Source: Megasphaera elsdenii DSM 20460
Lineage (GTDB): Bacteria; Bacillota; Negativicutes; Veillonellales; Megasphaeraceae
Reading direction: 5' to 3'
DNA: 32,000 nt
Assembly (NCBI RefSeq): GCF_003010495.1
Contig: NZ_CP027570.1
Span: forward strand, 1,230,001-1,262,000
The notes under the pieces were generated by a model, which saw only the letters and a list, made by a program, of their open reading frames with translations, did no database searches and was not told the origin of the DNA. A program made the translations under genes and the position numbers. Positions 1,808 through 28,136 of this stretch are shown in pieces; the stretch's first letter is position 1, and every line of letters starts with the position of its first letter.

Positions 1808-2737
1808 ATGGAAATATTGATTACGGGTGGTGCCGGCTTCATTGGGTCGCATGTTTTAGCACAGTTGAAAGAAATGCCGGATATGGATGTTGTCGTCTTT
1901 GATAATTTGTCTAGTGGGTCCCGGAACCACGTGCCCGATGGAATGGAACTCATTGAAGGCGATATCTGCGATGAAGAAGCTATTGACGCTGTCTTTTCCG
2001 ATCACCATTTTGAGGCTGTCGTCCATCTGGCAGCGCAGACGATGGTCCCGGTTTCGGTGGAACAGCCTGTCCTCGATTGCCAGATTAATTTGGAAGGCGT
2101 CCTTCATGTGCTGGAAGCCTGCCGGGTTCATGGCGTGCCGCACATCCTGTTTTCGTCCAGTGCTGCCGTGTACGGGGATAATCTGAACATTCCCTTAGTG
2201 GAAACGGAACGGCTCGCGCCGACTTCCCCGTATGGTGTTACTAAGATGACGACGGAACATTACCTGCGAGTCTATCATGAATTATACGGTATGGATGCGA
2301 CGGTTTTCCGTTTTGCCAACGTTTACGGCGAACGGCAGGGCGAAAAAGGAGAAGGCGGTGTCGTCAGCATTTTCTGTAAGCTCTTGTCCCATCATCAGGG
2401 GCTTACGGTTTTCGGCGATGGCAGCCAGACTCGCGATTTCGTCTATGCTGGCGATATTTCCCAGGCCATTATCCGGGCGCTGCCGCTCAAAGGCTATCAT
2501 ACGATGAATGTCTCGACGGGCCAGGAAACGAGTGTCAACGATTTGATCCATAGTTTTGAAAAAGCCGTTGGCCATTCCGTAGATGTGACTTATACGGCGC
2601 CTAGGACGGGGGATATTCTGCGGTCGGTCCTCAGTAATGGTGCCTTGAAAGAGAACCTGGATTTTGTACCGGCAATGGATTTGGAAGAAGGAATCCGCCG
2701 GACCTATGAATGGTATCAGGGGCAATGGGCGCAGTGA
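1808..2737 (+). CDS. NAD-dependent epimerase/dehydratase (GalE-like SDR)
   Basis: The N-terminus has the Rossmann motif ILITGGAGFIGSH and the catalytic motif YGVTK (YxxxK). The RBS is GGGGGA upstream of the ATG. Confidence 0.85.
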   Translation: MEILITGGAGFIGSHVLAQLKEMPDMDVVVFDNLSSGSRNHVPDGMELIEGDICDEEAIDAVFSDHHFEAVVHLAAQTMVPVSVEQPVLDCQINLEGVLHVLEACRVHGVPHILFSSSAAVYGDNLNIPLVETERLAPTSPYGVTKMTTEHYLRVYHELYGMDATVFRFANVYGERQGEKGEGGVVSIFCKLLSHHQGLTVFGDGSQTRDFVYAGDISQAIIRALPLKGYHTMNVSTGQETSVNDLIHSFEKAVGHSVDVTYTAPRTGDILRSVLSNGALKENLDFVPAMDLEEGIRRTYEWYQGQWAQ

Positions 2738-2748
2738 GGCATTTTTCC

Positions 2749-2777
2749 TTGACAGGCTTCCCAAAACATGACACAAT
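2749..2777 (+). promoter_or_regulatory. Putative promoter of pyrF-pyrE
   Basis: TTGACA at 2749-2754, a 17-nt spacer, and CACAAT at 2772-2777. Confidence 0.45.
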
Positions 2778-2818
2778 TAATTAGATATGCCTATATTTAT
2801 ATACAGGAGGGGTAGCCC

Positions 2819-3532
2819 ATGGCAGATGATCGCATCATTACGGCTTTGGATGTCCATTCACTGGAGGATATGAAGAAGCTCGTAGAAACCCTTGGCGACA
2901 GTGTTTCTTTTTATAAAGTCGGCATGGAACTGTTTTACAGTGCCGGTCCCGACGCAGTACGGTATTTGAAGGACCAGGGGAAACATGTTTTCCTCGATTT
3001 GAAGGTCCATGATATTCCCAATACGGTAGGCCAGAGCATCCGCGCCCTGACCCGTCTCGGCGCCGACCTCATGACGCTGCACGGCACAGGTGGCCGGGCC
3101 ATGATGGAAGCGGCTGCAGAAGCCGTCCGCGATGAAGCGGCCAAGCTGAATATCGAACGGCCTCGCCTTTTGGCTGTGACGGTATTGACCAGCATCGATG
3201 AAGATGCGTGGAAAGAAATCGGCGGCAAGTACAGCATTGCCGAATCGGTCAAGAACCTGGCTAAACTGGCCAAGGAAGCCGGTATCGACGGGACCGTTTC
3301 TTCGCCGTATGAAGCGAAGGAAATCCGGGAAATGAATGGTCCCGATTTCCTCATCGTCACGCCGGGCATCCGTCCGACCTTTGCCGTAGCCAACGACCAG
3401 AAGCGGTTCACGACGCCGTCCCAGGCTTTGCGCGACGGGGCATCCCATTTGGTCATCGGTCGTCCGATTACCAAGGCTGCCGATCCGAAAGAAGCAGCGG
3501 AAAAGATTTTAGCAGAAATTCAGGGGGTATAA
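2819..3532 (+). CDS. pyrF: Orotidine 5'-phosphate decarboxylase
   Basis: Motifs FLDLKVHDIPNT and LVIGRPIT are typical of the family, as is the 237-aa length. The RBS is AGGAGGGG. Confidence 0.93.
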   Translation: MADDRIITALDVHSLEDMKKLVETLGDSVSFYKVGMELFYSAGPDAVRYLKDQGKHVFLDLKVHDIPNTVGQSIRALTRLGADLMTLHGTGGRAMMEAAAEAVRDEAAKLNIERPRLLAVTVLTSIDEDAWKEIGGKYSIAESVKNLAKLAKEAGIDGTVSSPYEAKEIREMNGPDFLIVTPGIRPTFAVANDQKRFTTPSQALRDGASHLVIGRPITKAADPKEAAEKILAEIQGV

Positions 3533-3538
3533 CCAATC

Positions 3539-4126
3539 ATGATGACAGAAGAAGAAGTAAGACAGTTATTAGTAGAAACGAAAGCCGTTCTCGAAGGCCA
3601 TTTCCTGTTGACGTCGGGCCTGCACAGCCCGCTGTACGTTGAAAAATTCAACGTTCTCCAGCATCCGGAATATACGGAAAAGCTCTGCAAGGAATTGGCA
3701 GAACGTTTCAAGGACCAGAACGTCCAGACTGTCATGGGTCCTATGACCGGCGGCATCCTGCTGGCTCATGAAGTCGGCAAGGCTCTCGGCACGCGGGCTA
3801 TCTTCACGGAACGTGAAAAGGGCGTCATGACTCTTCGCCGTGGCTTCCACATCGAACCGGGTGAACGCGTCCTCATCGTCGAAGATATCGTCACGACGGG
3901 TGGTTCTGTTCAGGAAGTTGTCAACGTTGTCAAGAAAGCTGGCGGCGTCATCGTCGGTGTTGGCCTCCTCGTCGACCGTAGCGGCGGCAAGGCTGAATTC
4001 GGCGTACCGAAAGATAAGGTCCAGGCCCTGCTTCACTTGACGGTTCCGACGTACAAACCGGAAGAATGCCCGCTCTGCAAACAGGGCATCCCCATGACCG
4101 AACGGGGCAGCCACCATCTGAAATAA
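3539..4126 (+). CDS. pyrE: Orotate phosphoribosyltransferase
   Basis: The PRPP-binding motif VLIVEDIVTTGGS is present, and the gene lies 6 nt after pyrF. Confidence 0.92.
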   Translation: MMTEEEVRQLLVETKAVLEGHFLLTSGLHSPLYVEKFNVLQHPEYTEKLCKELAERFKDQNVQTVMGPMTGGILLAHEVGKALGTRAIFTEREKGVMTLRRGFHIEPGERVLIVEDIVTTGGSVQEVVNVVKKAGGVIVGVGLLVDRSGGKAEFGVPKDKVQALLHLTVPTYKPEECPLCKQGIPMTERGSHHLK

Positions 4127-4144: not shown

Positions 4145-5086
4145 TTGTTCATGGAAATGTTATCGGCCATAGCGCCTTTCTTCATGGCTGGCCTGCTGGG
4201 GACGGTGTTCGCCCGTTTTACGGGCATCAATATGAGCATGTGCGTCCTCCTCATGTTTTTGTACATGGGGGCCAAGCCCGTCGAATGTATTGCCGCTATG
4301 TTGATGTTTAATGTATTCACCTATTTTACGGTGTATTCTCAGCTTCACGTCATGAAGATCAAGAGTTTCACCTTTTTCCCTGGCGTGCGCCTGGCCATCC
4401 CGATTTTGATCACCATTGCCCTGGCTGCGCTCAATCCTTTCATCGGCATCGTCTTTTTCGTCTTCACGTTCCTCATGGAAATCTTCGCCAAGATTTATAA
4501 GGAAATGGATGCCAAGTCGCGTCCGACGAAGGGGAAAATCGGTCAGATGGTCGTCCTCGCCGCTGTCCTGGTGACGATTGGCACGGCTCTCGTCCAGTTC
4601 ATCCCGGAAAATTATTATTACATCGTCGGCGGCGTGACTATTTTGATTTACGCCTTCTTCATGTGGCGGACGGGAGACCGCCGCAAGGGAACGGCCTGGT
4701 GGGATAAGCTGCTCTATGCATCGACGTTCCTCACCGGTCTGAGCGGCATCGACGGGACGGACTGGCTCACGGCGATGCGCCGTAATCCCGAATCGGTCTT
4801 GTCTAAATGCTATCCCATCGTCATCAACGGGGCCATGATCATCGCCCTGCTGGCATCGTATGCTATGTATCAGTATTTCTCGCTGGGTGCCTTGTTTGCT
4901 ACCATCGGTTCGGCCGTCGGCATCCGCCTGTTTGGCTTATATGAACATAAAGAAAAGGGAAGCTTTTCTTACCTCACCTTGGGCATTGCCGTCCTAGCAG
5001 CCCTGGTGTTCATGATCATCCAGCCCGTACCGACAGGATTCCCTGTCGTGCCCATGGCAGATAATGCCGGATTTTTCGATTTTTAG
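4145..5086 (+). CDS. Polytopic integral membrane protein of unknown function
   Basis: There are about 8-9 hydrophobic segments and no motif I recognise. The start is TTG 4145 or ATG 4151, after AGGAG at 4135-4139. It lies 18 nt after pyrE and so is probably co-transcribed. Confidence 0.6.
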   Translation: MFMEMLSAIAPFFMAGLLGTVFARFTGINMSMCVLLMFLYMGAKPVECIAAMLMFNVFTYFTVYSQLHVMKIKSFTFFPGVRLAIPILITIALAALNPFIGIVFFVFTFLMEIFAKIYKEMDAKSRPTKGKIGQMVVLAAVLVTIGTALVQFIPENYYYIVGGVTILIYAFFMWRTGDRRKGTAWWDKLLYASTFLTGLSGIDGTDWLTAMRRNPESVLSKCYPIVINGAMIIALLASYAMYQYFSLGALFATIGSAVGIRLFGLYEHKEKGSFSYLTLGIAVLAALVFMIIQPVPTGFPVVPMADNAGFFDF

Positions 5087-5093
5087 TTTTGCA

Positions 5094-5128
5094 AAAAAGC
5101 GCTGTCTTTTATGGCAGCGCTTTTTTTT
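5094..5128 (+). terminator. Rho-independent terminator (GCGCTG...CAGCGC stem plus a T8 run)
   Basis: The sequence is AAAAAAGCGCTGTCTTTTATGGCAGCGCTTTTTTTT. It belongs to the recurring terminator family seen after carB, argD and the SGNH gene. Confidence 0.85.
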
Positions 5129-5130
5129 GC

Positions 5131-5185
5131 AAGGCTCCCTTTATAGGGGAGCTGGCCGCCGGAGGCGGTCTGAGAGGTTGTTTTT
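5131..5185 (+). repeat. Conserved double-hairpin element, copy A
   Basis: AAGGCTCCCTTTATAGGGGAGCTG-GCCGCC-GGA-GGCGGT-CTGAGAGGTTGTTTTT. It is homologous to the minus-strand copy at 24211-24155, with compensatory changes in the second stem. Confidence 0.6.
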
Positions 5186-5277
5186 AAATATTTGCAGGAA
5201 AACGGCGGGCTTTGTCGAATATATTATATATGCCTTATTTATGACTCAATTTTATTTTATATAAAGGGGGGATCCCT

Positions 5278-5775
5278 ATGAAGAAAAGTATTATCTTAGC
5301 GATGGTCGTAGCGGCTTTGGCTTGCGGGCCGGCCTGGGCTTATGATGAAGGACCGGTCATGGGGCCGTATTCGGCGATTCCCGGATTGACGGCGGTGCAG
5401 CAATGCCAATTGACGGTGGCCGGCAAGGTCATGGACCCGGCAGAGGGGGCTGTTTTACAGGAAAATAATGTGGTCATGATTCCCTTGCGGAAAGTGGCGG
5501 AACAGCTCGGTTATACCGTGACCTGGGATCCTGACGATCAGAGCGTTCGCGTAGAAATGAACATTGCCTATATCATCGTCAAGCCCGGTGAAGACTGGTA
5601 TGAACGGATCGGGACGATCAAGAAGGTCAACTTGAACCACATCTTCCAGTACGGTGCCGGCCCGGTCAATGTCAACGGTACGATGTACGTCCCGGCCCAG
5701 CTCTTTGAAGCCTTTTACAACAGCGTCACCATTACGCCCCAGGCCGTGACCATTACGCCGGCATCGACAGACTGA
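5278..5775 (+). CDS. Secreted protein with a copper-amine-oxidase-N-terminal-like (stalk) domain
   Basis: A signal peptide is present (MKKSIILAMVVAALACGPAWA). The segment VMIPLRKVAEQLGYTVTWDPDDQSVRV is typical of that domain family, from memory. The RBS is GGGGGGA. Confidence 0.65.
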   Translation: MKKSIILAMVVAALACGPAWAYDEGPVMGPYSAIPGLTAVQQCQLTVAGKVMDPAEGAVLQENNVVMIPLRKVAEQLGYTVTWDPDDQSVRVEMNIAYIIVKPGEDWYERIGTIKKVNLNHIFQYGAGPVNVNGTMYVPAQLFEAFYNSVTITPQAVTITPASTD

Positions 5776-18235: not shown

Positions 18236-18345
18236 AAATACACGGCCAACGGCCTTGTGCGTAGGGGCTGTCCCGCTGAGGGCAGCCCGCTGCGAAATTC
18301 GACCACACCTATTCGAGTATAATGGTAGGTTTTTACGAACCACGA
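18236..18345 (+). repeat. REP unit of about 110 bp
   Basis: AAAAAATACACGGCCAACGGCCTTGTGCGTAGGGGCTGTCCC...GGGCAGCCCGCTGCGAAATTCGACCACACCTATTCGAGTATAATGGTAGG, then heptads ACGAACC ACGAACT ACGGCCT. Related copies lie at 18512-18625, 20118-20230 and 20405-20525, and in reverse at about 560-610. Confidence 0.7.
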
Positions 18346-18357
18346 ACTACGGCCTTT

Positions 18358-18731
18358 CCTCGGACTCAGATGCGGCGTTCCGCCGCGACAGGCTCAAATT
18401 AACAACGACGCTTCGGGAAATCCTCAGCGCGTAGCGGGACGCCCTCCGGAATATCCTCCGGGACGTCCCCTACGAAATCGCATACAGGCGATGGGAATGA
18501 ACGCAGTTACAGGGCACAAAAAAAAACACGGCCTGTGGCCGTATGCGTAGGGGACGTCCAAAGGGCGTCCCGTTGTGATATTCGACCACAGCCCATTCGA
18601 GTATAATGGCAGGCTTTTACGAGCCACGAACAATGAACCACGAGCCACGATTTTTTCCACGAGCCGAGGGTTACTCGAGGCGATGTCGTCATTCTGAGCC
18701 TGTCGCCGCGTAGCGGCATCTGAGTCCGAGG
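18358..18731. mobile_element. MITE-like element, copy 1 (374 bp)
   Basis: The left TIR is CCTCGGACTCAGATGCGGCGTTCCGCCGCGACAGGCTCA (18358-18396). The right TIR is TGAGCCTGTCGCCGCGTAGCGGCATCTGAGTCCGAGG (18695-18731). The interior carries REP hairpins and 5 heptads (18619-18653). Confidence 0.75.
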
Positions 18732-18775
18732 CGGCCTGCGAACGGCGAACTGCGACCGGCGGGGCCGTTAGGCCC

Positions 18776-20117: not shown

Positions 20118-20230
20118 CGGTCGCAAAAAAACGGCCAGCGACCGTATAGGTAGGGGACGCCCGGAGGGCGTCCCGCTGTGATATTCGATTGCAGCCTATT
20201 CGGGTTTAATGGTATGCTTTTTGATTACGA
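20118..20230 (+). repeat. REP unit (diverged copy)
   Basis: AAAAAAACGGCCAGCGACCGTATAGGTAGGGGACGCCCGGAGGGCGTCCCGCTGTGATATTCGATTGCAGCCTATTCGGGTTTAATGG. Confidence 0.65.
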
Positions 20231-20249
20231 ATAACGCGCCGCGGCCTTT

Positions 20250-20629
20250 CCTCGGACTCAGATGCGGCGTTCCGCCGCGACAGGCTCAAATTAACAACGA
20301 CGCTTCGGGAAACTCTCAGCGCGTAGCGGGACGCCCTCCGAAATATCCTCCGGGACGTCCCCTACGAAATCGCATACAGGCGATGGGAATGAACGCAGTT
20401 ACAGGGCACAAAAAAAACACGGCCTGTGGCCGTATGCGTAGGGGACGCCCAAAGGGCGTCCCGTTGTGATATTCGACCACAGCCCATTCGAGTATAATGG
20501 CAGGCTTTTACGAGCCACGAGCCACGAACAACGAACCACGAGCCACGATTTTTTCCACGAGCCGAGGGTCACTCGAGGCGATGTCGTCATTCTGAGCCTG
20601 TTGCCGCATAGCGGCATCTGAGTCCGAGG
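20250..20629. mobile_element. MITE-like element, copy 2 (380 bp), in direct orientation relative to copy 1
   Basis: It is near-identical by eye to 18358-18731, with a handful of substitutions, and has 6 rather than 5 heptads (20510-20551). The shared flank continues to about 20676 (compare 18775). Confidence 0.75.
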
Positions 20630-20785
20630 CGGCCTGCGAACTGCAGCCTGCGACCGGCGGGGCCGTCAGGGCCCAACATACTATTTGCGAAATATTTTTC
20701 TTGCTATTCATGGGGGAATTGCGTACAATAGGGCTGTACTATTTTACAATATCAATGCAAAGGAAGAGGATAGGGAGAGAAGAAT

Positions 20786-23256: not shown

Positions 23257-24111
23257 CTACAACAATGTCTTGACAGCTTCGGCGATTTTTTTTGCGATAT
23301 ACGGGTTATTCATGGTGTAGACGTGGATGCCGTCTACGCCGTTAGCCAGGAGATCGGCAATCTGGTCGACGGCGTAGGCGATGCCGATATCGCGCATGGA
23401 TTCGGGAGTGTCACCGTATTTGGCAATGGCCCGCTGGAATTTGATGGGGAGCGTGGCGCCGCACATGGTGACCATGCGTTCGATTTGAGCTTTGTTAGTG
23501 ACGGGCATGATGCCGGCTTCGATGGGAACATTGATACCGGCAATTTCACAACGTTCGAGGAAGCGGTAGAAAAGGGCGTTGTCGAAGAAGAGCTGGGAAA
23601 TGAGTTCGCTAGCGCCGGCGTCGACTTTGGTCTTCAAGTTGCGGATGTCGGCGGCCAGGGTCTTAGCTTCGGTATGCCCTTCAGGGTAGCAGGCGCCGAT
23701 GACGTTGAATTCCGGCGCTTGTTCTTTGATGAAGGCCACAAGGTCGCTGGCGTGTTCGAAGTCGTGCGCCCGTTCGCGGCCCGGGACTTCATCGCCACGC
23801 AGGGCCAGGATGTTTTCGATGCCGGCTTCTTTCAGTTCTTTCAGGTCCTGCAAGGCTGCTTCTTTCGTCAGGTAGATGCAGGGCATGTGAGCGGCTGTTT
23901 CGCAGCCCAGGGCTTTGATGCGGCTGGCGACTTCGACCGTGCGGTTGCCGCCGGTACCGCCGGCGCCGCAGGTGACGCTGATGAAGTCCGGATGGAGTTT
24001 GCTCAGTTCTTCCAGCGTCGGATAGACCGTTTCGATGGGAATATCCTTCTTCGGCGGAAAGACTTCAAAAGAAAAGACCGTTTTTTTGGCAAAAAGCTCG
24101 TTCGTATGCAT
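23257..24111 (-). CDS. metF: 5,10-methylenetetrahydrofolate reductase
   Basis: It is 284 aa with an N-terminus FSFEVFPPKK, and the segments ISVTCGAGGT, ALRGD and GIHVYTMN are typical of MetF. The RBS is GGGGGA. Confidence 0.9.
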   Translation of the reverse strand: MHTNELFAKKTVFSFEVFPPKKDIPIETVYPTLEELSKLHPDFISVTCGAGGTGGNRTVEVASRIKALGCETAAHMPCIYLTKEAALQDLKELKEAGIENILALRGDEVPGRERAHDFEHASDLVAFIKEQAPEFNVIGACYPEGHTEAKTLAADIRNLKTKVDAGASELISQLFFDNALFYRFLERCEIAGINVPIEAGIMPVTNKAQIERMVTMCGATLPIKFQRAIAKYGDTPESMRDIGIAYAVDQIADLLANGVDGIHVYTMNNPYIAKKIAEAVKTLL

Positions 24112-24309: not shown

Positions 24310-25140
24310 TTAGAAGCTCGGCAGGATAGCACCCTGGTATTTGTCTTCGATGAATTTCTTGATTTCCGGAGACTGGAGGGCTTTGACGAGTTTCTGGATT
24401 TCCGGACGGTTTTCATCACCTTCGCGGATGACGAGGACGTTGGCATACGGCGAATCCTTCGGTTCCAGGAAGAGCGCGTCTTTCAGCGGATTGAGACCGG
24501 CTTCCATAGCAAAGTTGGTATTGATCAAGGCGATGTCTACGTCATCGATGGAACGGGGAATCTGAGCGGCTTCGAGTTCGACGAACTGGAGGTGTTTATC
24601 GTTCTTTTCGACGTCCTGTACGGTCGACGTGATGTTACCGCCATCTTTCAAGCCGATGAGGCCGGCACTCTGCAAGATGAGGAGGGCGCGGCCGCCGTTG
24701 GTCGGGTCATTGGGGATGGCGACTTTGGCGCCGTCAGCGACGTCTTTCAAGTCCTTGACTTTATGGGAATAAATGCCCATTGGTTCGACGTGGATCTTAG
24801 CGATGGCTTTCAATTTTGTGCCGTGTTCGCTATTGAATTTGTCGAGGTACGGTGAATGCTGGAAGAAGTTGGCGTCGATTTCCTTATCGTTCAGGGCCAG
24901 GTTCGGTTTGACATAGTCCGTGAATTCGACGACTTTCAGGTCGACCCCTTCTTTGGCCAGGAGCGGTTTGACTTCATTCAGGATTTCACCGTGCGGTACG
25001 GGCGTGGCGCCGACGGTGACTGTCGTGTTCTTGGAAGACGAGCCGCTGGAAGCGGAATCACTGCCGCAGCCGGCAGCCAGGACGGCGATGGCCAGCAGGG
25101 CTGAAGCGGCGAGAATGGAAAGTTTCTTGAGATTTTTCAT
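24310..25140 (-). CDS. metQ: MetQ/NlpA-family methionine-binding lipoprotein
   Basis: The lipobox LAAGCGS is present, with family-wide similarity to the paralog at 26971-27804 (IPNDPTNGGRAL, EAAQIPRS). The RBS is AGGAGG. Confidence 0.88.
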   Translation of the reverse strand: MKNLKKLSILAASALLAIAVLAAGCGSDSASSGSSSKNTTVTVGATPVPHGEILNEVKPLLAKEGVDLKVVEFTDYVKPNLALNDKEIDANFFQHSPYLDKFNSEHGTKLKAIAKIHVEPMGIYSHKVKDLKDVADGAKVAIPNDPTNGGRALLILQSAGLIGLKDGGNITSTVQDVEKNDKHLQFVELEAAQIPRSIDDVDIALINTNFAMEAGLNPLKDALFLEPKDSPYANVLVIREGDENRPEIQKLVKALQSPEIKKFIEDKYQGAILPSF

Positions 25141-25169
25141 AAAGATTCCTCCTAATGATGTAGTATAGA

Positions 25170-25400
25170 CTTTTCTGTTCCGTCATTATCCTTGAACCTC
25201 TCCCGCTTATAGAAGCGGGAGATTCTTGAGAAATTTGATACATGGACTAACGCCTGACAGCCTATTCCAAAGGAGTTAGCTGTCAGGATATCCTTATTCT
25301 CAAAGGGCTGTCCAAAAGCCCCTTACACAGTCCCTCGAAATCGAAGTTCTGCTTACTTTTACGGAGTATGTTGTATGCTCCATTCACATCCGCGTTGGCC
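25170..25400 (-). ncRNA. Putative omega/reRNA of TnpB (3' end of tnpB plus RE); not demonstrated
   Basis: This is by analogy with characterised TnpB systems. Hairpins lie at 25253-25287 (CCTGACAGC...GCTGTCAGG, spanning the stop codon) and at 25199-25222. Confidence 0.3.
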
Positions 25401-26700
25401 ATCCTGCCATCGGCGAACTGGTACAAGCCACGGTGGATACGCTTCCCACTGAACGTGCCAGTATACGGCTGTTCAGGATTATAGACAGGAATATCGTCTA
25501 AATCCAAGCAACTTGCTTGAGAAGTGTAAGATTCTTCCTGTTCGATATATCGCATACCGTAACGCTCGCAAAGTCCTTCCAGTGTTTCACGCAGATTACC
25601 GAAACTGATTTGCGTAAACTGCTGGTTGGTTATCCTACCCAGGTCGATACTACGTTTAAAGTCACCGTTATAACCACAGACGATGGTTCCGATACGGTGT
25701 TCGATACAGTAGTTGATGATATAGCGGGCAACCTTGCGGAGGTAGTCCTGTGTCCGATTATTACGTTTTCTTGCTAAGGCATAGAGCCTGTGCGTTTTCT
25801 TCTGTCCTTGTTTGTCGGCAATCCCCTGATAGTAGGCTTTCTGCTTGTTCCAATACTGGTTGATTGATTTAAGTTTACGCCCGTCCATGATGAACGCCGT
25901 CCCGGTGTTGGTCACGCAAGTTGCCAGATTTTCAAGACCGATGTCGATAGCAAGGACATTGTCCGGTGAAACGTCTTGAGGTTCTTTCTCCTGAAGATAG
26001 TAATACTGGATTTTGAAGTATCTGCCATTATATATGGGACAGATACGGACTTCCTTGATGGTTTTCTCTTTCAGTCTTGCAGGGAAAGGGATTTTGATTG
26101 GCTTACGGCCATGCCGTTTAGAAAATCCCCGACTCATGGGGATCGTCAAGAATCCATCTTTTACGTTTATGGCGTTCGTGGAGAGAATCAGGTTGAACAT
26201 GCCGCCTTTTTCCCGATAGTGAGGCATTTTGATGTCCTTGAAGCGATATTCTCCTGATTTTGCCTTTTTTATGAGATTGAAGAATGACTTGAAACTGCGG
26301 TCAGCCACCTTCAATATCTGCTGAGACACGCCAGCCTGCAACAGACCGTAGTTTTCGTTTTCCTTGCAGACATGGTAATTTTCTTCGTATTTCAAGAACT
26401 TCTTCTCTTGGAAATAGTATTGCCTGATGTTGTAGAGAGCCACGTTGTAGAGGTTGTTGCTGTATTGGCACATCTCCCGCAGCATGGCATATTCTTCTTT
26501 GGAAAGATTTCTGATGACATTTGATTGAGTAAGATACACATTTTTCACCTCCTTTTTTATTATATGATTATTATGTGGGAAATAGTGATGATTTTTAAGA
26601 TGAGTTACAGCGTTTTTGTGCTTTTTACGGGCCTTGGACCCACTCAAGCACCGCCATTCATCCCCCACCTAAGAGGTGGGAGTCTTCTGGCGGGAAAAGA
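25192..26700 (-). mobile_element. IS200/IS605-family TnpB-only (IS1341-like) element; ends are approximate
   Basis: tnpB is flanked by related CTCCC-type subterminal hairpins: the LE side at 26662-26682 and the RE side at 25199-25222. There is no tnpA. GC content is lower than in the flanks. TTCAA lies just outside the RE hairpin. Confidence 0.75.
25283..26539 (-). CDS. tnpB: TnpB (IS605 OrfB) RNA-guided endonuclease family protein
   Basis: The RuvC-like residues are in LAIDIGLEN, EESYTSQ and NADVNGAYNI. The GTG start at 26539 lies 8 nt after AGGAGG. The longer ORF-track start at 26668 has no RBS and runs into the LE hairpin. Confidence 0.88.
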   Translation of the reverse strand: MYLTQSNVIRNLSKEEYAMLREMCQYSNNLYNVALYNIRQYYFQEKKFLKYEENYHVCKENENYGLLQAGVSQQILKVADRSFKSFFNLIKKAKSGEYRFKDIKMPHYREKGGMFNLILSTNAINVKDGFLTIPMSRGFSKRHGRKPIKIPFPARLKEKTIKEVRICPIYNGRYFKIQYYYLQEKEPQDVSPDNVLAIDIGLENLATCVTNTGTAFIMDGRKLKSINQYWNKQKAYYQGIADKQGQKKTHRLYALARKRNNRTQDYLRKVARYIINYCIEHRIGTIVCGYNGDFKRSIDLGRITNQQFTQISFGNLRETLEGLCERYGMRYIEQEESYTSQASCLDLDDIPVYNPEQPYTGTFSGKRIHRGLYQFADGRMANADVNGAYNILRKSKQNFDFEGLCKGLLDSPLRIRIS

Positions 26701-26736
26701 TAAAAAAGACCTCTTTCCGAAAGAGAAAGAGGTTTG
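26701..26736 (-). terminator. Expression-platform terminator of the SAM-I riboswitch
   Basis: The minus strand reads ACCTCTTTC-TCTTTCG-GAAAGAGGT followed by CTTTTTTA. Confidence 0.85.
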
Positions 26737-26745
26737 ATGGCTGAT

Positions 26746-26840
26746 TCTTTATCTCTCGGAATAATCCGCAGGAATTGGCACCGTCGTTATCGGTTGCCGG
26801 GCTTCATAGGGCCAGTCCCTCCACCACTCTGGATAAATGT
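26746..26840 (-). promoter_or_regulatory. SAM-I (S-box) riboswitch aptamer
   Basis: The minus strand reads TTATCCAGAGTGGTGGAGGGACTGGCCCTATGAAGCCCGGCAACCGATAACGACGGTGCCAATTCCTGCGGATTATTCCGAGAGATAAAG. This matches the S-box consensus almost position for position. Confidence 0.92.
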
Positions 26841-26864
26841 CGTTCTAAAGTTGTCTTGATTCTT

Positions 26865-26892
26865 AGTTTATCATGGATAGGCTATTTGTCAA
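26865..26892 (-). promoter_or_regulatory. Putative promoter driving the riboswitch
   Basis: On the minus strand: TTGACA (26892-26887), a 16-nt spacer, TAAACT (26870-26865). Confidence 0.4.
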
Positions 26893-26909
26893 GGTCTATC
26901 TTAAGGGCA

Positions 26910-26938
26910 TTGACAAAACTATACTAAAAGCGTAGTAT
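26910..26938 (+). promoter_or_regulatory. Putative divergent promoter of the second metQ
   Basis: TTGACA at 26910-26915, a 17-nt spacer, TAGTAT at 26933-26938. Confidence 0.45.
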
Positions 26939-26970
26939 TTAGACAACAATCTAAAGAGGGGGAATCAGTT

Positions 26971-27804
26971 ATGATTCAATGGAAAAAGAAATTTTTACCG
27001 CTTGCCTTATTAGCCGTATTGGCTGTCGGCCTTGCCGGTTGCGGCGGTCAGGGGGATAATGGCCAGAGTGCCGGCAGCAGCGACAAGGAAATCAAGATCG
27101 GAGCCACAGCGGGTCCTCATGCTGAAGTCGTCGAAGCCGTGGCTAAGGAAGCAGAAAAACAGGGGATTCACATCAAAGTCGTCGAATTTTCCGACTACAT
27201 TACGCCGGACAAGGCCCTGGCTGATGGAGATATTGACTTGGTCAGCTACCAGCATAAGCCATTCCTGGATAATTTCAATAAGCAGAATGGTACGGATTTA
27301 GTACCTATTGGCAACACGATCCTCATGCGCATGGGGATTTACAGCGATAAATATAAGAGTGTCGACGCTTTGCCCGACGGAGCTGTCATTGCTATCCCCA
27401 ATGACCCGACTAACGGCGGCCGCGGCTTGGCGCTCCTTCAGCGCGCAGGGCTGCTGAAACTTAAAGAGGGCGTAGGATTCAAGGCTACGCCGGCTGATGT
27501 CGTCGATAATCCCAAGCATTTCCAGTTCAAAGAAATCGAAGCGGCCCAGCTGCCGCGCAGCCTCGGTGACGTCGATGCGGCTGTCATTACTATGAACTAC
27601 GTCATGAGCGCCGGCCTTAACGTCAAGGAACAGGGCATCTTCTTGGAACCGAAAGACGAACCGCTGGCCGTCATGGTCCTGGCTGTCCGAGCTCAAGATA
27701 AGGATAATCCGACATACAAGAAGATTGCTGAAATCTTCCATTCCGATGGCGTCAAGAAATTCATTGCCGACAAGTACAACGGTACGATTGAACCGGCTGA
27801 ATAA
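26971..27804 (+). CDS. metQ: MetQ/NlpA-family lipoprotein, second paralog
   Basis: The lipobox LAGCGG is present, along with IPNDPTNGGRGL and EAAQLPRS. The RBS is GAGGGGGA. Confidence 0.88.
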   Translation: MIQWKKKFLPLALLAVLAVGLAGCGGQGDNGQSAGSSDKEIKIGATAGPHAEVVEAVAKEAEKQGIHIKVVEFSDYITPDKALADGDIDLVSYQHKPFLDNFNKQNGTDLVPIGNTILMRMGIYSDKYKSVDALPDGAVIAIPNDPTNGGRGLALLQRAGLLKLKEGVGFKATPADVVDNPKHFQFKEIEAAQLPRSLGDVDAAVITMNYVMSAGLNVKEQGIFLEPKDEPLAVMVLAVRAQDKDNPTYKKIAEIFHSDGVKKFIADKYNGTIEPAE

Positions 27805-27852: not shown

Positions 27853-28136
27853 AAATCTAAATGGATTTGTCGATGAACGAAACGAGTATATCTGATGTGG
27901 CAGTTCCAGCGAGCCGATGGCAGTGGGAGTTCGGCACGGACCGGCGGATAGAATGGATTCGGGAGATGCGGCCTGAACGGTGACCAGTAGGGTGCGACGG
28001 TGTATTTCCACCGCTATCAAAGAAACGTGTATCGCTATGGGCCGTACATGTAGAGCTGGACTCACTGAGTCAATCTGGGTGGCACCGCGGAAGAAATCGA
28101 ACCTTTCGTCCCTGTATAGGGACGGAAGGTTTTTTG
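27853..28136 (+). promoter_or_regulatory. T-box riboswitch, predicted Trp (UGG) specifier
   Basis: The Stem I base is CGATGAACGAAACGAGTA. TATCTG (27889-27894) pairs with CGGATA (27945-27950) and is followed by GAA-TGG-A (TGG at 27954-27956). The T-box sequence AATCTGGGTGGCACCGCG lies at 28072-28089. The terminator ACCTTTCGTCCCT/AGGGACGGAAGGT plus a T-run lies at 28099-28136. Confidence 0.85.

Follow-up and report, generated by a model that had tools for sequence, protein, structure and literature searches.

The 32,000-nucleotide stretch of the Megasphaera elsdenii DSM 20460 genome analysed here (contig NZ_CP027570.1, positions 1,230,001 to 1,262,000; hereafter the window) carries an S-adenosylmethionine (SAM)-sensing riboswitch of the SAM-I or S-box type, which is separated from the methionine genes metQ and metF by a complete, non-autonomous insertion sequence (IS) of the IS200/IS605 family with tnpB as its sole gene. 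Comparison with related genomes shows that this element was inserted precisely 3' of a TTTAT motif, without target duplication, in the Megasphaera elsdenii lineage. The explanation that we consider highly probable as a whole is that an element encoding TnpB and its guide-bearing ωRNA landed 3' of the TTTAT at the end of the riboswitch's own terminator and thereby left metQ-metF partly uncoupled from SAM. That a TnpB-only IS element is wedged between the riboswitch and these genes had been proposed in an earlier, sequence-only reading of the locus, and independent copies of the same element at other loci bear the proposal out.

The evidence for a precise insertion comes from relatives gathered by a MetQ scan of species-representative genomes (L numbers are our handles for the sequences compared). 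In the uncultured Megasphaera UMGS1114 (L033), MetQ and MetF are 99.6% and 100% identical to those of the window over aligned residues, with 95.3% identity in the DNA of the right flank, and in Megasphaera sp. WILCCON 0056 (L036) MetQ is 95% identical. In both, the terminator directly abuts the metQ leader, reading ...GGAAAGAGGTCTTTTTTAT up to the joint and GGATAATGACGGAACAG...AGGAGGAATCTT(T/C)ATG beyond it; immediately around the breakpoint …GGTCTTTTTTAT meets GGATAATGACGG…, that is, the target form TTTAT is followed by GGATAATG. These alleles correspond to the window minus 26699-25192, the target duplication is absent, and the BLAST breakpoints fall exactly between window positions 26700 and 25191. 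Finding an empty site, with riboswitch and metQ side by side, was the decisive test put forward in the sequence-only reading, whose guessed limits for the insert (about 25192-26700) come within one base of the true ends; with the element removed, the distance to the AGGAGG of metQ is 37 nt for the TTTAT and about 46 nt for the terminator stem, close to the 50 nt or so that it had foreseen. Altogether, empty sites are present in L033, L036, L034 and seven further relatives. TnpB was undetected by tblastn in L033-L060, and a SAM-I riboswitch lies immediately upstream of metQ in 10 related genomes without tnpB (within L033-L043, including M. cerevisiae, Colibacter and Veillonella). Taken together, the empty sites and the position of the riboswitch in relatives indicate that the ancestral state was an ordinary S-box metQ(-metF) operon.

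The ends of the element follow equally from its independent copies, which share 70-95% DNA identity with it, lie on other Negativicutes-type contigs and on phage contigs, and match the window only across about 26707-25192; their junctions delimit the element to 26699-25192. On the left, TTTAT is the flank at 10 of the 13 distinct sites, the other three having TTTAA, CTTAT and an ambiguous TTTAT+AT, and the copies start with C(T/A)..., leading into the CCAGAAGACTCC hairpin. On the right, copies that can be aligned through the junction finish in ...GGGAGAGGTTCAA, and the more divergent ones still end in TCAA, with differing flanks beyond. The element lies in the same orientation as the met operon and lacks terminal inverted repeats. 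Its left-end hairpin occurs in all family copies, miniature derivatives included, and shares a related CTCCC..GGGAG core with the subterminal hairpin of the right end, both being conserved across copies with compensatory changes.

Table 1. Features of the riboswitch, the inserted element and the downstream genes (window positions)
Feature	Positions	Strand	Details
metF (methylenetetrahydrofolate reductase, MTHFR)	23257-24111	-	TIGR00676, 325 bits, above cutoff
metQ (MetQ/NlpA methionine-binding lipoprotein)	24310-25140	-	ATG 25140; ribosome-binding site AGGAGG 25153-25148
Right flank, predicted ωRNA guide portion	25172-25191	-	GGATAATGACGGAACAGAAA; also start of the native metQ leader
ωRNA-like scaffold, 168 nt	25192-25359	-	Overlaps tnpB 3' end and right end; hairpins 25287-25253 and 25222-25199; terminal TCAA 25195-25192
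Complete non-autonomous IS200/IS605-family element (IS1341-type, tnpB-only), 1508 bp	25192-26699	-	Delimited by independent copies and empty-site joints
tnpB, 418 amino acids, GTG start	25283-26539	-	Pfam OrfB_IS605 (PF01385), Cas12f1-like_TNB (PF07282); NCBIfam guided_TnpB NF040570
Element-borne promoter upstream of tnpB	26570-26598	-	TTAAAA-17-CATAAT, 9/12 matches
Left-end subterminal imperfect hairpin	26651-26693	-	CCGCCAGAAGACTCCCACCTCTTAGGTGGGGGATGAATGGCGG; CTCCC..GGG core, resembles right-end hairpin
Riboswitch intrinsic terminator	26700-26733	-	10-pair stem 26733-26709, then T-tract CTTTTTTAT
SAM-I (S-box) aptamer	26746-26839	-	RF00162, 79.7 bits, E = 2e-17, model positions 1-108
S-box leader promoter, sigma-70-type	26865-26892	-	TTGACA-16-TAAACT with TG extension; 10/12 matches in promoter scan

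Much of the anatomy in Table 1 had been laid out in the sequence-only reading. Its promoter-like TTGACA/TAAACT (26892-26865) was recovered by the promoter scan, the aptamer that it placed at 26840-26746 scored positively against the RF00162 covariance model, one base shorter, and the terminator that it placed at 26736-26701 was found as a stem with its T-tract. Its tnpB (26539-25283) is recognised by both the Pfam and the NCBIfam models, the two hairpins that it saw after the gene (25287-25253 and 25222-25199) reappear in the fold analysis, and the AGGAGG and ATG (25140) of metQ, followed by metF, were likewise upheld, the products belonging to the MetQ/NlpA and MTHFR families. The CTCCC hairpin that it described at the left end is present, but extends more widely than its 26682-26662. 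The lower GC content that it remarked on in the inserted segment amounts to 0.37-0.48, against 0.50-0.58 in the flanking genes.

The family to which the element belongs is large and mobile. At least 13 distinct left-flank contexts, phage contigs included, attest to its movement, and below 1e-10 its TnpB has 6017 matches in a database clustered at 90% and 2859 representative matches when clustering is at 50%; many of the contigs hit are some 1.5 kb long, which is usual for a repeat. Further, miniature derivatives on IMG/VR phage contigs (L121-L125), inserted after TTTAT or CTTAT, have no tnpB and are reduced to some 55 nt from the left end plus the final 170-220 nt. The many copies and these derivatives imply a transposase acting in trans, and mobilisation in trans is what we assume for the element; its insertion would then have followed the single-strand 'peel-and-paste' route of Y1 transposases, immediately 3' of TTTAT. 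A family preference for terminator tails was considered and rejected, in that, of 7 left flanks inspected, about 2-3 at most resemble terminators, and the preference is thus for TTTAT itself. No second right end was found within the 32-kb window.

Some copies invite separate comment. In L019 a family copy (2336-3848) is convergent with a metF (MTHFR) gene (4447-5316), and in a Selenomonadaceae metagenome-assembled genome (L091, about 4250-4480, minus strand) a metQ homologue is followed by a right end with an ωRNA-like scaffold; this vicinity to methionine genes is probably a coincidence, the target being AT-rich and intergenic. In L016, from a bovine metagenome (1-475), homology to the window is lost upstream of 26584 and is followed by low-GC, foreign-looking sequence with a promoter-like TTGCAA-17-TACAAT kept, and L010 begins at 26595; we take these two as an assembly chimera or contig end. 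The family members L114-L116 likewise diverge between the left-end hairpin and the promoter of tnpB.

On the host side of the left junction, the S-box leader has all its parts. The score of its aptamer compares with a gathering score of 44.4 bits for RF00162, which is the only Rfam family over threshold in the entire window, and the aptamer is intact in all strains compared. The empty-site alleles of L033 and L036 have the same promoter hexamers, TTGACA and TAAACT, and L034 has similar ones (TTGACA / TAAACT-like). Downstream of the aptamer, an antiterminator-type pairing of 16 nt (26715-26730 with 26746-26761) joins the 3' side of P1 to the 5' arm of the terminator, so that antiterminator and intrinsic terminator exclude each other in the expression platform, and the minimum-free-energy folds of the filled and the empty alleles both contain the terminator. 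From these features, binding of SAM and SAM-dependent termination by the leader are predicted. The target TTTAT, which is also the presumed target-adjacent motif (TAM) of the nuclease, forms the final five bases of the T-tract (26704-26700), so that the terminator stays intact after insertion; the post-insertion sequence reads TTTTTTAT, then CTTTT.

By score, the TnpB protein is a member of its family (187.6 bits for NF040570, 'RNA-guided endonuclease TnpB family', against a cutoff of 100) and departs from the canonical form in its active site. In an alignment of 47 family members with 29-88% identity, D199 (RuvC-I) and D384 (RuvC-III, within NADVNGA) are invariant, the canonical position of the RuvC-II Glu is occupied by an invariant G289 (IVxGxN; IVCGYN in the window), and E336, in QEESYTS, is conserved in at least 90% of the members. 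The CxxC zinc-finger cysteines are missing from the family consensus. Lacking the canonical RuvC D-E-D triad, the protein is filed as a rearranged-site TnpB. The family profile aligns with Cas12f and ISDra2 TnpB chains; a single-sequence search of the protein against PDB sequences gave no match, whereas profile and fold searches did. The AlphaFold (AF2) model (predicted local distance difference test score, pLDDT, 91.6; predicted template-modelling score, pTM, 0.85) has its best Foldseek matches in AsCas12f (TM 0.67-0.69) and ISDra2 TnpB (TMt 0.72), with Cas12f/TnpB folds overall at TM 0.63-0.72. In this model G289 falls within strand 283-290 and E336 right after the next core strand, 330-335. 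Large clades of TnpB with a rearranged RuvC-II (RIIr, e.g., RIIr-5) have been described, in which the Glu has become Gly and a compensating Glu stands at a RuvX-like position, and which were judged active, with loss of the C4 zinc finger confined to some of the branches (Altae-Tran et al., 2023; PMC10691335). With this precedent, the conservation of G289, E336, D199 and D384, together with the model, leads us to regard the protein as probably an active nuclease with a rearranged site and not a dead, TldR-like regulator. As for the extent of the gene, its start at window positions 26541-26539 is GTG (AAAAATGTGTATCTT), the relatives L019 and L029 (about 83% and 77% DNA identity) have ATG TAT CTA, and gene callers give 400, 409, 418 or 421 amino acids for the tnpB locus in different strains.

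The most conserved non-coding-like block of the family is 25359-25192, which is also what the miniature derivatives keep. Across 13 diverse copies its consensus fold has 34 pairs, 10 of which show compensatory double changes, among them pairs of the terminal hairpin and of a long-range stem bracketing a variable insertion; the single-sequence fold has a z-score of -4.5. This covariation shows the putative ωRNA scaffold to be a conserved structure. Homology among the copies stops sharply at TCAA, with variable flanks beyond, and hence, by analogy with characterised TnpB systems, the adjoining flank would be transcribed as the guide. In the empty-site alleles this right-flank sequence follows TTTAT directly, so that TTTAT plus flank is the reconstituted donor joint: the predicted guide with TTTAT matches the empty joint of L033 and L036 over at least 17 identical bases, has no second match in the 32-kb window, and differs at every insertion site of the family. 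TAM- and guide-dependent cleavage by the TnpB-ωRNA complex is predicted; with the first ~16-20 nt of the metQ leader as guide and TTTAT as TAM, the nuclease would target only the empty (excised) joint and thereby favour retention of the element. Cutting of the donor joint is an established mechanism of retention for ISDra2 and IS608-type elements.

Within M. elsdenii the filled site appears to be the rule. Over 24900-27100, the window is matched at 99.4-100% identity by genomes and by contigs of gut or rumen metagenomes; these include HE576794.1, which we take to be the chromosome of Megasphaera elsdenii DSM 20460, and CP198969.1 (100%), and every such M. elsdenii contig that spans the site has an intact tnpB at the same place. 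Single-nucleotide differences in tnpB among these contigs are 16 synonymous to 6 non-synonymous, a ratio in keeping with ongoing purifying selection or with homogenisation between this and other copies. Beyond the species, a contig from a metagenome-assembled genome (L013; GCA_022778065.1) has a left flank 99.4% identical to that of the empty-site L033, sharing the lineage-specific deletions in a divergent metQ-like gene, and contains, behind the same TTTAT, an element whose TnpB protein is identical to that of the window. Relative to the element of the window, this one has 9 mismatches and one 9-bp indel over the 1508 bp, against differences of 3-7% in the host flanks; it is about 5-fold less diverged than its surroundings. 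If the left junction of this single contig is real, the site is polymorphic in the sister lineage, and arrival or exchange of the element postdates the divergence of the lineages. On the evidence of this one contig, the TTTAT of this terminator may be a site at which insertion recurs.

Three explanations of the locus compete with an insertion of an active element, and all of them fare poorly. The most easily dismissed, to which we give practically no credence, takes 25192-26700 for a native, conserved long leader of metQ; the occupation of the same place in every M. elsdenii contig listed is what such a reading would expect, but the empty joints and breakpoints of L033 and L036 refute it, the site is empty in L034 and seven more relatives as well, and the segment is found at unrelated loci and on phage contigs. 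It is hardly more credible that the riboswitch is cargo of the element, so that a riboswitch-regulated tnpB moves as a unit. The contig L013 lends this some colour, with its identical TnpB, homology running through riboswitch and promoter (26928-25192), and a different downstream gene; however, its left flank is the same chromosomal locus as in L033, down to the lineage deletions. Further, more than 12 independent copies match only from about 26707 onward, without the riboswitch, and the empty sites retain the riboswitch, missing only 26699-25192. The remaining possibility, that tnpB is a domesticated, nuclease-dead guide-RNA repressor of the TldR kind, fixed here to regulate methionine genes, strikes us as very improbable. 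It can draw on the replaced RuvC-II Glu (IVCGYN), on the missing CxxC zinc finger, on a position fixed across M. elsdenii strains and on a polymorphism that is mostly synonymous. Yet throughout a family of thousands the Gly, D199 and D384 are invariant and Glu336 is at least 90% conserved, a pattern published as a rearranged and probably active site (PMC10691335). Moreover, the family is mobile, as its many flanks, miniature derivatives and phage-contig copies attest, its guides differ from site to site, and the guide predicted here finds no other match in the window. It is the conservation of G289 and E336 across the family, with the published precedent, that led us to reject assignment to TldR.

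What the insertion means for metQ and metF, both of which are intact, depends on the transcription signals that surround and enter the genes. A scan of the minus strand found no terminator-like site between 26700 and 25140, and flagged no promoter-like site in the native 51-nt leader of metQ. We also rejected a promoter, whether hybrid or native, in the interval from the right end to metQ, the TATACT seen by eye at about 25166-25161 being without an acceptable -35. Within the element, aligned relatives have TTGAAA/TTGTCA-17-TATAAT at the position of the promoter listed in Table 1, about 35-70 nt upstream of tnpB; the window's copy carries one weakening change in each hexamer, and these positions are the same in all M. 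elsdenii contigs compared. When SAM is abundant, transcripts begun at the S-box promoter would still end before the element, at about 26700, as expected of an intact riboswitch and terminator. When SAM is scarce, they would run on across the left end, through tnpB and the ωRNA, and into metQ-metF, the lack of a predicted intrinsic terminator on this strand being the reason to expect antiterminated transcripts there. The weakened element promoter would add a SAM-independent tnpB-ωRNA transcript that probably also reaches metQ-metF. The net outcome that we infer from these sequence signals is mixed control, with SAM-responsive read-through and a low SAM-independent input from the element: metQ-metF would be partly, not wholly, uncoupled from SAM, and tnpB and its ωRNA would rise under SAM limitation. 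The sequence-only reading had posed uncoupling of metQ-metF and SAM-dependent read-through into tnpB and its guide RNA as two possible outcomes; the anatomy suggests that each happens in part.

A serious alternative to mixed control, which we nevertheless judge clearly the less likely of the two, is complete uncoupling, in which the riboswitch would gate only entry into the transposon and metQ-metF would be transcribed solely from promoters internal to the element (that of tnpB or one of the ωRNA), without response to SAM. The conserved promoter inside the element speaks for it, as does the nature of the 1.5-kb structured insert, whose hairpins and possible TnpB-mediated processing of the ωRNA could block or cut read-through; the presence of the insertion in all M. 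elsdenii contigs listed indicates that the insertion is tolerated. Set against these points, the minus strand has no predicted intrinsic terminator from 26700 to 25140, both hexamers of the element promoter are weaker than in close relatives, and the aptamer is still intact in all strains compared. Going beyond mixed control in the other direction, the metabolite sensor could have been turned into a regulator of the transposon's RNA-guided nuclease, in an arrangement kept by selection in M. elsdenii and not merely tolerated. We hold this to be improbable; were it true, limitation for SAM or methionine would boost tnpB and the ωRNA, and hence retention and homing activity, and the weakened element promoter would supply a SAM-independent basal level of metQ-metF.

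Several observations weigh against the insertion of an active element followed by mixed control as we have put it. A Y1 transposase (TnpA) was not found within the element or beside any of the copies fetched. The canonical RuvC-II Glu and the zinc finger are absent, and nuclease activity is predicted from conservation and the structural model. In L013 (2140-3434) and L015 (4137-4619), the riboswitch-plus-IS left side is joined to right flanks other than metQ, namely a 423-amino-acid open reading frame without a Pfam match and the interior of a GntR-like regulator; these could be products of recombination between IS copies or IS-mediated rearrangement, or else assembly chimeras within the repeat. 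Finally, Rho-dependent termination within the 1.5 kb of read-through, or processing of the ωRNA, might sever metQ from the upstream transcript.

Other features of the window lie outside this junction. Divergent from the S-box promoter region is a second gene for a MetQ/NlpA-family lipoprotein (26971-27804, plus strand), about 48% identical to metQ, with its own promoter (TTGACA-17-TAGTAT, 26910-26938) and without a riboswitch; its orthologue in L037 has a SAM-I riboswitch of its own, and the gene is mostly deleted in L033 and L013. In the 360-nt gap between this gene and a transporter cluster of the ATP-binding cassette (ABC) or energy-coupling factor (ECF) type (ABC_tran, CbiQ, TrpP-ABC fusion), a full-length match to the T-box leader model (27864-28116, plus strand; E = 5.6e-19) scores 87.7 bits, below the gathering score of 93; the orthologous position in L034 exceeds the threshold with 94.2 bits. 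Farther off, a direct repeat of about 440 bp with 94-95% identity (18333-18775 and 20225-20673, with a partial copy at 20122-20253) brackets a region that holds a Fic-domain gene in orthologous loci, and strains differ here (spacing in L002 and L010).

All the parts of this locus are of known kinds: an S-box leader, a tnpB-only IS200/IS605 element, and a TnpB with rearranged RuvC-II and its ωRNA; IS insertions in operon leaders are commonplace. Our literature searches turned up no earlier account of this locus or of a TnpB element situated behind a riboswitch. Current understanding is not overturned by it. Rather, it offers a natural example of a TnpB-only IS200/IS605 element re-wiring a riboswitch-controlled operon with neither partner destroyed, where the coincidence of the TTTAT target with the terminator's tail leaves sensor and terminator intact and gives the element the place of first 'gene' in the regulated transcript. 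The site is occupied in M. elsdenii isolates, the type strain apparently among them, and empty in Megasphaera sp. WILCCON 0056; with both states available, the effect on methionine regulation and on tnpB and ωRNA expression can be tested directly. Moreover, the TTTAT target is hereby documented for a large Negativicutes family of TnpB proteins with a rearranged RuvC and no zinc finger, which may interest those mining for compact genome editors.

Set beside the classical S-box leaders of methionine genes in Firmicutes, the locus has the same aptamer, the same antiterminator/terminator platform and methionine genes (metQ, metF) downstream, in a geometry that is normal in the empty-site relatives; the window differs by the 1.5-kb transposon between the terminator and the first regulated gene. 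With the IS1341-type elements of the IS200/IS605 family, and with IS608 of Helicobacter pylori and ISDra2 of Deinococcus radiodurans, the element shares the lack of terminal inverted repeats and the subterminal hairpins at both ends. It further shares with IS608 and ISDra2 insertion 3' of a short motif, no target duplication, seamless empty sites, and a tnpB with a 3'-overlapping ωRNA. The right end of IS608 finishes in TCAA, like that of the window element, and the target motifs are TTAC in IS608 and TTGAT in ISDra2. In contrast to these two, the window element uses TTTAT, has no tnpA, has a rearranged RuvC-II without a zinc finger, and sits in a riboswitch-controlled leader. The IStrons, IS605-type elements combined with a group I intron, are likewise TnpB-bearing IS200/IS605 elements in sense orientation inside a host transcription unit; the element described here has no group I intron (no Rfam match) and hence cannot self-splice from the host transcript. 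Its nuclease resembles the RIIr clades in the replacement of the RuvC-II Glu by Gly and in the conserved alternative Glu following the next beta-strand (PMC10691335), and differs in that the window family is also without the C4 zinc finger. With the TldR proteins it has in common the loss of the canonical RuvC-II Glu and a fixed genomic position within one species; in contrast, its family has a conserved alternative catalytic set, is mobile, carries variable guides specific to each insertion site, and in this window shows no target of the repressor type.

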